Below are positions 31,132 to 35,428 of a stretch of 64,000 nt of DNA, one piece after another. Source of the DNA: an uncultured virus (IMG/VR IMGVR_UViG_3300030329_003231) (lineage: Duplodnaviria > Heunggongvirae > Uroviricota > Caudoviricetes); the IMG/VR virus record IMGVR_UViG_3300030329_003231. One strand, given 5' to 3'. Below the pieces are notes generated by a model. It was not told the origin of the DNA, did no database searches, and saw nothing but the letters and a program-made list of their open reading frames with translations. Numbering within the stretch: position 1 is the stretch's first letter; every line of letters starts with the position of its first letter. Made by a program: the position numbers and the translations under genes.

Positions 31132-32214
31132 TTAACCTATTGCAGGAGCAACAAGTGCAACTTCACTAGTCTCAGCTGCTGCCAAGTCTAATGGGAAGTT
31201 GTGAGCATTACGCTCGTGCATAACTTCCATTCCAAGGTTTGCTCTATTCAGAACGTCTGCCCAAGTAGGAACAACTTTACCGTCTGCCGATACAATCGAC
31301 TGGTTAAAGTTAAATCCATTGAGGTTAAATGCCATCGTTGAGATACCCATTGAAGTCAACCAGACGCACACCACAGGGAATACGGCAAGGAAGAAGTGCA
31401 GGGATCTGCTGTTGTTGAACGAAGCATACTGGAAGATAAGACGACCAAAGTAGCCATGAGCAGCCACAATGTTATAGGTCTCTTCTTCTTGTCCGAACTT
31501 ATATCCATAGTTAAGTGATTCTTGTTCTGTTGTTTCTCTGATTAGAGATGAAGTAACAAGTGAACCGTGCATTGCGGAGAATAATGCTCCACCAAACATA
31601 CCTGCTACACCTGCCATATGGAAGGGGTGCATGAGTATGTTGTGTTCTGCCTGGAATACGAACATGAAGTTAAACGTACCAGATATACCTAACGGCATTC
31701 CGTCAGAGAAAGATCCCTGTCCGAAAGGATAAATTAGGAACACTGCGAAAGCAGCAGATACAGGTGCAGAATATGCTACACAAATCCAAGGTCTCATACC
31801 TAAACGATATGATAACTCCCACTGTCTACCCATGTAGGCAGAAATTCCAATAAGGAAGTGGAAGATTACTAACTGATATGGACCTCCATTATACAGCCAC
31901 TCATCTAGTGAGGCGGCTTCCCATATAGGATAGAAGTGCATACCGATTGCGTTGCTTGAAGGGACAACAGCACCAGAGATGATGTTGTTACCATACAATA
32001 AAGAACCAGCAACAGGTTCTCTGATTCCGTCAATATCGACGGGAGGAGCAGCAATAAATGCAATGATGAAACAAGTAGTTGCAGCAAGTAAACATGGGAT
32101 CATTAGAACCCCGAACCAACCGACATAGATTCTATTCTCGGTTGATGTTACCCACTCGCAAAACTGTGGCCATCCTTGTAATAAAGCACTCTCTCTTTTT
32201 TGAAGAGTTGTCAT
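31132..32214 (-). CDS. psbA: Photosystem II D1 protein
   Basis: Full-length 360 aa D1 ([10 protein letters not shown]...HNFPLDLA), uninterrupted. Confidence 0.99.
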
Positions 32215-32223
32215 GAGTCCAAC

Positions 32224-32332
32224 TTTAAGTAGAGCTGATAGGGAGTCAGCGGAACTTAGGTATCCTTCAGTACCCTTTAACCTGAAGGTAGGATGAGAGA
32301 TATTATGACCCCATGATCTCGGTTAGGGGGAA
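32224..32332 (-). ncRNA. PhotoRC-II-type structured leader RNA of psbA
   Basis: Three hairpins (CCCC..GGGG, CCTTCAG..CTGAAGG, TAAGT-GCTGA..TCAGC-ACTTA) with loop complementarities GAGAT/ATCTC and AGGG/CCCT, directly 5' of psbA; family name from memory. Confidence 0.65.
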
Positions 32333-32360
32333 GTAATGATGAGCAGATACTCACCCGATT

Positions 32361-32394
32361 TATTTATTATAAAGGAATGTTAAGCAAATGGCAA
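32361..32394 (-). promoter_or_regulatory. Overlapping sigma70 (TTGCCA-17-TATAAT) and late (AATAAATA) promoters for psbA
   Basis: -35 at 32389-32394, -10 at 32366-32371, late box at 32361-32368. Confidence 0.75.
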
Positions 32395-32497
32395 GCCCCA
32401 TGTGCCACTACATGGAGTGGTATCATAACTCACCTAGTACACATATATTAACATCTGTTTTGCTAAATAACGATAGGTATATTATCTCAAATTATAA

Positions 32498-32992
32498 ATG
32501 AAAAGACTAGTTCCTTTCATTATGTTAGTGATGGCAGCTACACCCCTTGCGGCTCGTGCTGATATTACATCAAGAATGACCTCCAGTGTTCAGTTGCAAG
32601 TTAATGCTGCTGCAACACAAATGCAAAGAGTGGGAAACTCTTATAGTATCTCTGGTAATAACGTGGATACAACTGATGGAACCACTGCTAACACAGTTAG
32701 TGCTGGTGCTATAAGTAGTGGTGTCTATGGACCTGGTACTATTTCTGTTACCCAAGACGACCCCGGCGAATCATTTAGCTTTACAACTTCATTTATCCAA
32801 GGTGATGCTATTGATACAACTGGTCCGGACATCGGAGATGTTTCAGCATACTCTGATCAGTTATCTACTGCTGCTGGATCTGCTGGAAACCTAGCTGGTA
32901 CTGTCACTTCGCAAGGTGCTTTGACTGTGACAGCTGGTGGGGCTGGCACAACGGCTACAGGTCAATTCGTCACCGAGATTACCGTGGACTAA
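32498..32992 (+). CDS. Exported beta-rich protein of unknown function (cassette gene A)
   Basis: Sec signal MKRLVPFIMLVMAATPLAARA; Thr/Ser/Gly/Ala-rich mature part; CTAAATA late-type box at 32463-32469. Confidence 0.75.
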   Translation: MKRLVPFIMLVMAATPLAARADITSRMTSSVQLQVNAAATQMQRVGNSYSISGNNVDTTDGTTANTVSAGAISSGVYGPGTISVTQDDPGESFSFTTSFIQGDAIDTTGPDIGDVSAYSDQLSTAAGSAGNLAGTVTSQGALTVTAGGAGTTATGQFVTEITVD

Positions 32993-33001
32993 AATAGTGT
33001 T

Positions 33002-33475
33002 ATGAAACGCTATATACTTTTGTTGTTATTACTAGGTAGTGGTACTGCTGTGAAGGCAGTACCTGTGGTCCCTAATTTTACACAGGGATCTATGACTACC
33101 CATACGGAGACATCCTCCACCGTGACGGAGACTATTAATTCAATTGACTATAGGACAGGATGGGAATACACAGTGACCGGGGTAGGGGTAGAGAACAATG
33201 GCCAACCCATCAATCCCGACGTGAACGCCAGTTCAGTATCAATAACACCCTCAACCGGAACAACGGGTGGAAACGACGCAGTAACAGGAACTTTAACGAG
33301 CTCCTTCGACTCACTCGACATGGACAGCGCAGGAAGTTATACGATATCCGAACCTGGTGGAGCCTTTCAATTCACCCAGAGTTATCAAGGACCAGGTATG
33401 ACCAACCAGACGATCATACAAAGAGTAACCACCATAGAAAGCGTCACAGATACAACCAGCGTCTTTACCCAATAG
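33002..33475 (+). CDS. Exported beta-rich protein of unknown function (cassette gene B)
   Basis: Sec signal MKRYILLLLLLGSGTAVKA; VPVVPNFTQGSM; Thr-rich. Confidence 0.75.
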   Translation: MKRYILLLLLLGSGTAVKAVPVVPNFTQGSMTTHTETSSTVTETINSIDYRTGWEYTVTGVGVENNGQPINPDVNASSVSITPSTGTTGGNDAVTGTLTSSFDSLDMDSAGSYTISEPGGAFQFTQSYQGPGMTNQTIIQRVTTIESVTDTTSVFTQ

Positions 33476-34755
33476 CATTAGCACTACTTGGAATAGTTAA
33501 TCCTACCGCTGCACTTGCTGAAAGTGTCGGCGGTGTTTCTGCGACTGCTAATCCTATCGCCAATAGTTCTGGCTCAGTCACCAACCAGGCAATTCAAGTT
33601 TTACAAGGTCCTTATATAACTAACACTTATGGTAACCAGATAAGTTGTCAAGGTCCTACTGCTAACTTTACCCCATATATTCAGTACAGTAACTCATGGA
33701 AAGATCCATTTGAAAGACATTATATGCAACCACAATATAATAACAATGACTTTACAGGACGTACTACTACACAAACTGTCACCGTAAAGAACTATCCTTG
33801 GTATGATGGATATGCACGAGGTCCTAATAATGCTGATGGTACAATGGGTGATTACCTTTTAGATGATGATGGAAATAAAATACCCATTGAAGAAAACTGG
33901 TATAACGATGCTGTTAAAGAAGACGCAAATGGTGATCCTATCCTAGATGATGATGGCAATCCTCAAAGATACTGGGAGGATGGTGCTGATATGCAAATTG
34001 AAATGGAAGTAGATGGTCCTGATGGTGTACCTGACAATCCCGGTCAAGTTGTATGGAATAAACCAGTACGAACAGATATGAGTGCCAATAATAATTTTAA
34101 TATCGGAATTTCTGCTACTCTATCCCTACCACTGGATAGAAAATTACAAAACCTCTGTAAGCAAGCTGCCACCACTCAGATAGAACAACAGCAACAAATT
34201 ACTGCTAACAAAAGATTGGATTTTGAGATCGCACGTCTCAAAAATTGTGGTGAACTCATGCAAAAGGGCATCATGTTCCATCCACGATCTCCTTATGCTG
34301 CTATCTGTGCAGACGTAGTAGTCTCAACACCTCCAGGAACTATCATACCTCATAGTCATGACTTCCCTAGACCTACATTTAGTGAAGATACTACAACTAA
34401 TGATACAAAAGAAATACAACAGCCCCAAGCAAATGGAACTGCTGATGATTTAACACCAATGTCTATTGGTAATCCTATTTCTTCTTCTTCTCCTCCTCCT
34501 TCTTCTTCTCCTTCTTCTTCTTCTCCTTCTTCGCATGTTCCTTCGCAAAGTTTATCTCCAGTAACCCCTTCTTCTTCCGATACTCATTCGTCCGAATCTC
34601 CTGAGGAGTCATCCGATAAGGAGACTTCCCCAGTTTCGACTGGATGGTTCCGATGGCCTTTTTCACGGCAGGCTTCACCACCCGTAGAAGAAGATCAGCC
34701 AGCGGCTTTGCTAGGAGGGCCGATCCAGTTGCCACCGTCGCAATCACTGCCGTAG
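33160..34755 (+). CDS. Exported/envelope protein with long basic N-terminal extension (cassette gene C); start uncertain
   Basis: Signal-like PIALALLGIVNPTAALA at about aa 104-120; no ATG/GTG/TTG between 33160 and that segment; 4 Cys; NFNIGISATLSLPLD amphipathic strand. Confidence 0.65.
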   Translation: MGIHSDRGRGREQWPTHQSRRERQFSINNTLNRNNGWKRRSNRNFNELLRLTRHGQRRKLYDIRTWWSLSIHPELSRTRYDQPDDHTKSNHHRKRHRYNQRLYPIALALLGIVNPTAALAESVGGVSATANPIANSSGSVTNQAIQVLQGPYITNTYGNQISCQGPTANFTPYIQYSNSWKDPFERHYMQPQYNNNDFTGRTTTQTVTVKNYPWYDGYARGPNNADGTMGDYLLDDDGNKIPIEENWYNDAVKEDANGDPILDDDGNPQRYWEDGADMQIEMEVDGPDGVPDNPGQVVWNKPVRTDMSANNNFNIGISATLSLPLDRKLQNLCKQAATTQIEQQQQITANKRLDFEIARLKNCGELMQKGIMFHPRSPYAAICADVVVSTPPGTIIPHSHDFPRPTFSEDTTTNDTKEIQQPQANGTADDLTPMSIGNPISSSSPPPSSSPSSSSPSSHVPSQSLSPVTPSSSDTHSSESPEESSDKETSPVSTGWFRWPFSRQASPPVEEDQPAALLGGPIQLPPSQSLP

Positions 34756-35428
34756 TCGTAACCACTTGAGGTGTTGGAAGAAAGGCTTCTACTGCTCCAA
34801 TATCCTCATATAAAGTAACACATATCTTTTCCCCATCAGGGTTTCTAGGATCCCTTTGCAACTCAAACCCACTAACCTTCTCTTTCATATTCTGTGCTAC
34901 ATCACCTATACGAGGTGCCATAGGACCAGGACAAGGAGGGTCTTCCTTTGTCTCTGAAGGTGTTTTAGGAGGTTCAGGAGTCTGTGGAGTAGGTGTAGGA
35001 GGAGGATCACCTACATCTACCCCAGATGTTACATCAGGAGGATCTCCATAAAAAGTTTCCCACTTCAACCTATTAGATTGATAATCAAGTGCTCTAAAAC
35101 TTGGAGCTCCTGCATCACACAGTACTGTATTACCTTTAGGATCATTATCTACTAACTGCTTATTCCTATTTCTTTCTCTCGCATTCTCTTTATGAACCTC
35201 AACACAACCAGCAATATTAACAACTGGGGTTCCCACCTGTACTACCACAGGAGGATCTAACTGCGTAGCATTAGGAGGATTAACCACCCATATACGATTA
35301 TCAGCAACTCTTATTGTCTGAGGACTCCTAATACCAATCGGTTGAACATCACCAACATCAACTTGTTGAACATCACCAATACCAACGTTCCCAACGCCAA
35401 TGTTATTAATACGAATCTCAGGAATCAT
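34475..35428 (-). CDS. Cys/Pro-rich protein with C-terminal membrane anchor and basic tail (cassette gene D)
   Basis: 317 aa; 4 Cys, Pro-rich linker, TM VVTTTAVIATVATGSALLA, Lys/Glu tail. Confidence 0.7.
   Translation of the reverse strand: MIPEIRINNIGVGNVGIGDVQQVDVGDVQPIGIRSPQTIRVADNRIWVVNPPNATQLDPPVVVQVGTPVVNIAGCVEVHKENARERNRNKQLVDNDPKGNTVLCDAGAPSFRALDYQSNRLKWETFYGDPPDVTSGVDVGDPPPTPTPQTPEPPKTPSETKEDPPCPGPMAPRIGDVAQNMKEKVSGFELQRDPRNPDGEKICVTLYEDIGAVEAFLPTPQVVTTTAVIATVATGSALLAKPLADLLLRVVKPAVKKAIGTIQSKLGKSPYRMTPQEIRTNEYRKKKGLLEINFAKEHAKKEKKKKEKKKEEEKKKK

Follow-up and report, generated by a model that had tools for sequence, protein, structure and literature searches.

The window analysed here, a stretch of 64,000 nucleotides, comes from a T4-like cyanomyovirus whose nearest named relatives at the DNA level, 76% identical over part of the query, are the Prochlorococcus phages P-SSM2 and P-SSM5; its sequenced relatives have genomes of about 170-250 kb. 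The psbA gene (31132-32214, minus strand) precedes three plus-strand genes, here called A, B and C, which we propose to form a conserved cyanomyovirus operon for exported proteins with gene C in third position. Gene A (32498..32992) encodes an exported beta-rich protein (phrog_564, E = 1e-67). Gene B (33002..33475) encodes a protein of 157 aa with an N-terminal signal peptide, terminates at TAG 33473-33475, and belongs both to the Pfam family DUF6322 (E = 3.3e-33; 114.6 bits against a cut-off of 30.6) and to PHROG 650 (phrog_650, E = 1.4e-50). Gene A also matches the two families of gene B weakly (DUF6322, E = 0.029; phrog_650, E = 3.7e-4), and the two genes, which both carry a signal peptide, are probably old duplicates, that is distant paralogues. 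A CTAAATA motif, which we take to resemble a T4 late promoter, lies on the plus strand at 32463..32469, 35 nt 5' of the ATG of gene A, and is a candidate T4-type late promoter of the A-B-C operon. Among 91 unique related upstream regions, 52 carry (C/A)TAAATA 18-40 nt (mostly 29-35 nt) before the start of gene A. A scan of positions 32200-35000 for sigma-70 promoters and terminators found sites in numbers no higher than in shuffled sequences. Three marine RNA runs were found, each with 5% of the words and stored as contigs only; at 85% likeness these contigs gave short pieces of relatives over conserved stretches, in which no transcript ends, strand or starts were readable.

Gene C lies in the -1 frame of gene B. 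Read from the ATG at 33160-33162 it extends to 34755 on the plus strand and encodes 531 aa; its frame is open from 33154, immediately after the last -1 frame stop, a TAG at 33151..33153, and an RBS-like AGGA motif (33152-33155) stands 5' of the ATG. The overlap with gene B amounts to 316 nt, or 105 codons, and closes with an ATA (33472-33474, hereafter the junction codon) that overlaps the TAG stop of gene B. These positions agree in full with the initial annotation, which had placed gene B, TAG 33151, the AGGA motif, ATG 33160, ATA 33472 and the 316-nt overlap correctly. It had also stated that gene C has no ATG, GTG or TTG near its signal-like segment, and this holds: scanning the -1 frame from 33163 to the conserved mature part of gene C, we found none of the three codons.

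The codon choice of gene B changes over the overlap. T occupies 14% of the third positions in codons 53-157, against 45% in the long open reading frames of the window, and C occupies 35% against 8%, so the preference for C- and G-ending codons remarked on in the initial annotation is real. When the codons of gene B were resampled from the codon usage of the window with the B protein kept, a mean of 9.6 stops was expected in the -1 frame of the overlap, where there are none, and not one of 20,000 resamples was free of stops; codons 1-52, by the same procedure, contain five -1 stops against 4.7 expected. We extended the comparison to 70 unique B genes (the window, P-SSM2, P-TIM40 and contigs L003-L080) and defined as risk sites those third positions at which T would be synonymous in gene B but would make a -1 stop, the next codon starting with AA, AG or GA. 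T is found at 0 of 1199 risk sites in the overlap, compared with 40.7% of 587 risk sites in the upstream part of the gene, whereas safe sites carry T at 26% in the overlap and 36.5% upstream. As T is absent at the risk sites of the overlap and still present at a quarter of the safe ones, avoidance of stops is the main constraint on gene B. All the -1 stops of the 70 genes are confined to their first 80-278 nt, while their +1 frame has 10-23 stops spread throughout. Both frames are therefore open beyond chance, as expected of an overprinted pair, and the selection against -1 stops that had been suspected is borne out. At conserved residues of gene B, codon entropy is only slightly lower in the overlap (0.74 versus 0.83, P = 0.09).

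The same arrangement is widespread in related phages. The relatives comprised 80 loci from viral contigs retrieved with gene C as query, 55 further loci retrieved with its Syn30 homologue, and eight named isolates with a B-C pair; the podovirus SS120-1, in which C is represented only by a short relative of its helix region, was also taken in. Both B and C are present in 136 related loci, of which five are cut by contig ends, leaving 131 testable. In 125 of these 131 the -1 frame extends back without a stop to an internal ATG, a count not to be read as that many independent trials, since the loci are related by descent and were selected for their similarity to C. By the distance of the ATG from the stop of gene B they fall into a long class (more than 250 nt; 74 loci), a mid class (100-250 nt; 50 loci) and a single short locus (61 nt), from the freshwater phage DSL-LC03, with its ATG at -61. 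Gene C occupies the -1 frame of gene B wherever this was scored, in the window with 79 related loci and in 56 others. Isolates with the overlap include P-SSM2, P-HM2, S-RSM4, Syn30, S-TIM5, S-CAM1 and P-TIM40, and the identity of B within the long class falls to about 50%. The initial annotation had asked whether the -1 frame stays open in homologous loci, and in the great majority it does.

In the remaining six loci, which come from distant contigs of low GC content, genes B and C meet in a plain ATGA overlap; the signal peptide is normal (MKKYICLLLLLNNPVFA) and the -1 frame is closed, being open for just 4-49 nt upstream. Homologues with -1 stops and a normal ATG, which had been named as the observation that would speak against dual coding, hence exist, in these six distant loci only; they do not refute dual coding here, and represent an alternative, perhaps ancestral, state rather than pointing to an error in the window. 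In an unrooted tree built from 62 C sequences, two changes suffice for the three start types, the minimum possible: the long and mid classes form one group each, and the ATGA sequences form a well-supported clade on a long branch. A plausible and simplest account is that the start moved from an ATGA overlap to upstream ATGs, on a tree that, being unrooted, gives no direction. The junction codon overlaps the stop of gene B in every related locus. It is a canonical start in 11 of the 136 (six ATG, five GTG); in the window it is ATA over TAG and so differs from ATGA-type coupling, and none of the 63 loci with an ATA at this place has the TGA stop that would turn it into ATGA. The five GTG cases (L010, L045, L048, L051 and L062) have a TGA stop of gene B preceded by G, forming a GTGA junction, and keep the long open frame and the internal ATG.

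The internal ATG is embedded in the sequence ACA GGA TGG (33155..33163, plus strand), which encodes Thr52-Gly53-Trp54 of gene B: the ATG at 33160 consists of the last base of the GGA codon of Gly53 and the first two bases of the TGG codon of Trp54. A start codon of the form xTG can arise in the -1 frame only on a B codon beginning with TG, that is on Trp or Cys, and in most loci of the first set no ATG, GTG or TTG is listed for the -1 frame inside gene B apart from the Trp-derived ATG. The codon of Gly53 is GGA in 69 of the 70 unique B genes, the exception being P-TIM40, a member of the mid class, and codon 52 ends in A in all 70 (ACA in 69, GCA in one), while the codons neighbouring ACA GGA TGG use all synonymous forms. 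The start of gene C is consequently conserved at synonymous sites of its host gene, as expected of an overprinted pair, which answers in the affirmative the earlier question of whether the GGATGG start is conserved. The mid class has its own conserved ATG further down gene B, present in all 50 loci and formed on an ACA TGG pair; it lies 163-175 nt before the stop of B in most of them, and the resulting leaders begin with MDR or MDW. In most loci a -1 stop is found 2-5 codons upstream of the ATG, indicating that the frame is maintained open from the ATG onward and not before it. The 70 unique genes have no conserved Shine-Dalgarno motif ahead of this start; in 26 of them ACA is preceded by a codon ending in G (AGG in the rows listed), giving an AGGA motif of the type seen in the window.

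The RNA around the internal ATG is weakly structured. An unstructured island extends over 33125..33174 (plus strand), and we propose it as the translation initiation region of gene C. Folding energy in 40-nt windows is about -2 kcal/mol from -30 to +10 of the ATG, compared with -6 to -8 nearby, and this minimum of strength at the ATG is seen in the long class (69 unique loci) as well as in the mid class (36), despite the different positions of their ATGs. For each locus we drew 60 synonymous resamples that kept the B protein and its own codon usage and admitted no -1 stops. Relative to this null the region from -35 to +15 of the ATG is less structured (-3.85 versus -6.49; mean z = +1.2), with z above 0 in 91% of 69 loci. 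The windows at -100, -60 and +40 are more structured than the null (z = -1.4, -1.4 and -2.2), those further down are neutral, and the last 100 nt before the stop of gene B give no signal of weak structure (z = -0.35 to +0.35). This is the pattern expected of an initiation region at the internal ATG, not at the junction. The stable stretches at about 33035-33085 and 33175-33225, which exceed the null in most of the 69 loci, may be conserved RNA structures that bracket the start. A second zone of weak structure is seen in the long class about 140-160 nt before the stop of gene B (about 33315-33335 in the window), at the place of the mid-class ATG, and may be what remains of an earlier start.

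The overprinted leader of gene C (33160..33471, plus strand) comprises 104 codons in the -1 frame of gene B and is hydrophilic and basic, with 25 Lys and Arg, 9 Asp and Glu and 8 His residues in the window. Leaders of the long class measure 95-107 residues and those of the mid class 54-58; in both classes they are hydrophilic (mean hydropathy about -1.5) with no hydrophobic stretch, and their net charge ranges from +5 to +22 overall and from +7 to +22 in the long class. We compared the leader of the window with a null in which the B protein was fixed and -1 stops were forbidden. Lys plus Arg reach 25 against 18 under this null (P = 0.009), and since Asp plus Glu and His are raised likewise, the pattern is one of hydrophilicity, not of charge. 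The net charge itself, +16, lies within the null (+12.8 ± 3.5, P = 0.22), so the basicity is largely a by-product of the Thr/Gly/Asn/Asp-rich sequence of B read one base early; basicity as a selected trait was rejected for this reason. Over the overlap, the mean pairwise identity among 69 unique genes reaches 68% in B and 37% in the leader. Being hydrophilic, basic and poorly conserved, the leader looks like a spacer before the signal-peptide-like segment, and gene B is the dominant frame, with the leader as a passenger for which being readable is enough. The initial annotation had described a basic leader that possibly regulates export or binds nucleic acid: basic it is, but both roles are weakened by a charge that does not exceed the null and by the low identity.

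At the junction the leader gives way to a hydrophobic segment, IALALLGIVNPTAALA (33472..33519, plus strand, counting the ATA), which resembles the h and c regions of a signal peptide. It ends in A-L-A and is followed by E-S-V-G-G (ESVGGVSATANP); small residues at -3 and -1 before a conserved E/Q-x-V-G-G-V-S-A-T-A recur in the junction peptides, and the hydrophobic maximum over 10 residues is 1.5-2.9 (Kyte-Doolittle) in all classes. By inspection and hydropathy, basic residues precede IALALLGIVNPTAALA, forming an n-region of about 100 residues, which is atypical for a Sec signal; so many basic residues ahead of such a signal are unusual. We infer from these features a Sec-type signal whose n-region is very long and which is cleaved after ALA, the alternative being a signal anchor. 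In Syn30-type loci the peptide between the junction and the cleavage-like site is just IIALFVAAPVNA, 12 residues long, and the hydrophobic core begins within the overlap (LYAII...). The post-junction peptide of many relatives is too short to be a signal peptide alone, and their h-region then begins in the overlap. The junction peptide of P-SSM2 (IKAICLSALSVVVTAPVNA), on the other hand, looks like a complete signal peptide minus its Met, and four loci (L010, L023, L046 and L048) have longer, K/R-rich junction peptides that are likewise signal-like minus Met. Given these peptides and the five loci with GTG, a second start at the junction is conceivable.

The predicted mature part of gene C, with the stop codon, occupies 33520..34755 on the plus strand (phrog_848, 'gp165', T4-GC 235). 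Gene C is a member of PHROG 848 (E = 1.7e-121), profile positions 5-282 of 292 aligning with residues 55-423 of the long open reading frame. Since the match starts at residue 55, the profile extends about 50 residues into the leader, so the long frame was accepted by some annotators. A Pfam search with gene C gave no family. AlphaFold2 on the 62 sequences (mean pLDDT 66) predicted beta strands (51-216, numbered from the junction), one long helix with conserved cysteines (223-264) and then a disordered Ser/Pro-rich tail. No match to this model was found by Foldseek in the PDB at E <= 0.001, and in a wide VIA-align search the best Z, 4.8, concerned the long helix only, with no solved structure matching. 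The body of C is 33-78% identical over the 62 sequences. Cyanophage SS120-1 (Autographiviridae; L144, 2426-2758) has, shortly before its terminase genes, a 110-aa open reading frame that is 38% identical, across 74 residues, to the region of C with the helix and the cysteines; part of C therefore moves between cyanophage families that are not related to each other. At its 3' end, gene C overlaps a convergent minus-strand gene (34475-35428, phrog_570) tail to tail by 281 nt (34475-34755). The C-terminus of the phrog_570 protein is Lys/Glu-rich, and the overlapping end of C is Ser/Pro-rich and predicted to be disordered; in annotated relatives this second overlap measures 0-4 nt (Syn30 and P-HM2), about 100 nt (S-TIM5, S-CAM1 and P-TIM40) or 215 nt (P-SSM2).

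Several ways of expressing gene C can be weighed against this evidence. Ribosomes might end gene B at TAG 33473 and restart at ATA 33472, a termination-reinitiation that would be a degenerate form of ATGA coupling; the hydrophobic segment would in that case form the N-terminus of C, and the open frame before it would play no part. In its favour, the junction codon always overlaps the stop of gene B, true ATGA and GTGA junctions stand at exactly this point in six distant and five other loci, and some post-junction peptides look like full signal peptides that lack only Met. Nothing in it, however, would keep 55-105 codons open upstream, and it leaves unexplained both the total lack of T at risk sites and the fixed ACA GGA TGG with its unstructured island, the junction having no RNA signal of its own. 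The 12 residues that Syn30-type loci retain before the cleavage-like site also argue against it, as does the fact that ATA and GTA are very poor initiators in bacteria. We therefore give reinitiation only a slim chance, and the ATA start that the initial annotation had kept as a fallback finds no support, given the open codons upstream and the short junction peptides of many relatives. Its other fallback was a B-C fusion produced by a -1 frameshift. Whether by programmed ribosomal frameshifting or by transcriptional slippage in gene B, such a fusion would use the signal peptide of B; the constant -1 frame of C, the lack of a canonical start near its hydrophobic segment and a geometry resembling that of the phage tail chaperone genes G/GT all invite the idea. 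A slippery site was sought in the 70 unique B genes, and no heptamer of the form X XXY YYZ is conserved: any column inside the open region has at most 5 of 70, the commonest heptamer (13 of 70) lies upstream of the -1 stops, and homopolymers of at least 6 occur in 5 of 70 genes. Moreover, a late frameshift would need none of the 55-105 open codons, and the open frame sets in right at a conserved ATG, which in most loci follows a stop by 2-5 codons. Frameshifting is accordingly very improbable as the source of C, and the fusion is left unsupported.

It could also be argued that C is broken and its open frame accidental, through an assembly error, the recent loss of a start or pseudogene formation, as the normal ATG and closed -1 frame of the distant homologues might suggest. 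Yet the same architecture is found in 125 of the 131 testable loci, from isolates and metagenomes alike, the body of C is conserved, and the loci are too divergent to be copies of one misassembly; the likelihood of such an error is negligible. A further reading combines two starts in a regulatory device, with a long precursor made from the internal ATG and a minor short form made from the junction, at GTG in some phages and at a weak ATA or GTA in others. The basic leader of about 100 residues would, on this reading, delay or block export or anchor C with its N-terminus inside, and the ratio of the two forms of C would time the action of a late envelope module, which is possibly a lysis module, a logic analogous to the dual start of the lambda S holin and antiholin. 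The retained junction geometry, the signal-like sequences that start at the junction, the five GTGA loci and the relative of the C helix region near podovirus terminase genes are hints in this direction, none of them decisive, and we consider such a device unlikely.

We hold it probable, with good confidence, that gene C has a real overprinted start and begins at ATG 33160 inside gene B, in the -1 frame. The comparative data and the unstructured RNA island support the original proposal of a true dual-coding region with this start. Ribosomes would start at ATG 33160, read 104 codons of the DNA of gene B in the -1 frame, and pass the stop codon of B into IALALLGIVNPTAALA and then into the conserved body of C. 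The leader would most likely be the very long N-terminal region of a Sec-type signal peptide, or else of a signal anchor, and would be removed or become irrelevant once C is exported; these steps of initiation, export and leader removal are what the sequence features lead us to expect. Selection on the synonymous sites of gene B acts in three ways, keeping the ATG, keeping the nearby RNA unfolded and never making a -1 stop. A search of the literature for cyanophage ribosome profiling or N-terminal proteomics returned none for these phages.

When a long out-of-frame overlap is recorded in a large dsDNA genome, it is usually an annotation error. The B/C overlap is, on good evidence, a real case, and it is conserved across the marine T4-like cyanophages, a group that ranks among the ocean's most abundant viruses. 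In the literature on cyanophage overlapping genes, overprinting and DUF6322 we found no account of it, subscription papers and supplements (e.g. Sullivan et al. 2010) lying outside the scope of the search; passages of PMC2816706 mention only overlapping genes of T7 and disagreements over start codons in the annotation of P-SSM2. The GenBank records of the locus are at odds with one another: P-SSM2 and P-TIM40 have a C cut at an internal GTG, S-RSM4 lacks C and S-CAM1 lacks B, and in P-HM2 and S-CAM1 C starts from the upstream ATG. The conserved internal start of C explains this disagreement among public records, and the overlap gives a rule by which hundreds of them could be corrected. In addition, the series formed by the ATGA overlap and the overlaps of 61 nt, about 170 nt and about 310 nt is usable to study the upstream movement of a start and overprinting, and could show how overprinting constrains the codon choice of a neighbour. 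For practical work, B and C are not cleanly separable when the envelope module is expressed or knocked out.

The B/C pair shares features with several known systems and departs from each of them. With Rz/Rz1 of lambda, where the whole of Rz1, a functional lipoprotein, is contained in Rz, it has in common that one stretch of DNA of a dsDNA phage encodes two proteins in different frames of the same strand, the overlapped product being exported (presumably so for C). Unlike in that pair, only the N-terminal leader of C overlaps, it does so over the C-terminal two thirds of B, and it is weakly constrained; neither a lipobox nor a match to a spanin family was seen in C. The window is like the four-base ATGA and GTGA overlaps in that its junction codon still overlaps the stop of gene B, but this codon is ATA, and the frame is open 105 codons further upstream, to a conserved ATG. 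In phiX174 (A/B and D/E) and MS2 (L), tiny genomes under size pressure, whole functional proteins are overprinted; here, too, a second frame is open within a conserved gene and the newer frame is compositionally odd and poorly conserved, whereas the phage is a cyanomyovirus, with sequenced relatives of about 170-250 kb, and the overprint encodes a leader only. Autotransporters have an extended signal peptide region of about 25 conserved residues before a standard n-h-c signal, and C similarly has extra N-terminal residues before what may be such a signal, but its leader is 55-107 residues long, basic and unconserved in sequence, and lies in the frame of another gene. Finally, the tail assembly chaperones G/GT and dnaX are programmed -1 frameshift pairs, and like their downstream frames C is in the -1 frame without a nearby start of its own; unlike them, B/C has no conserved slippery site, and its -1 frame is open far upstream, to an ATG.
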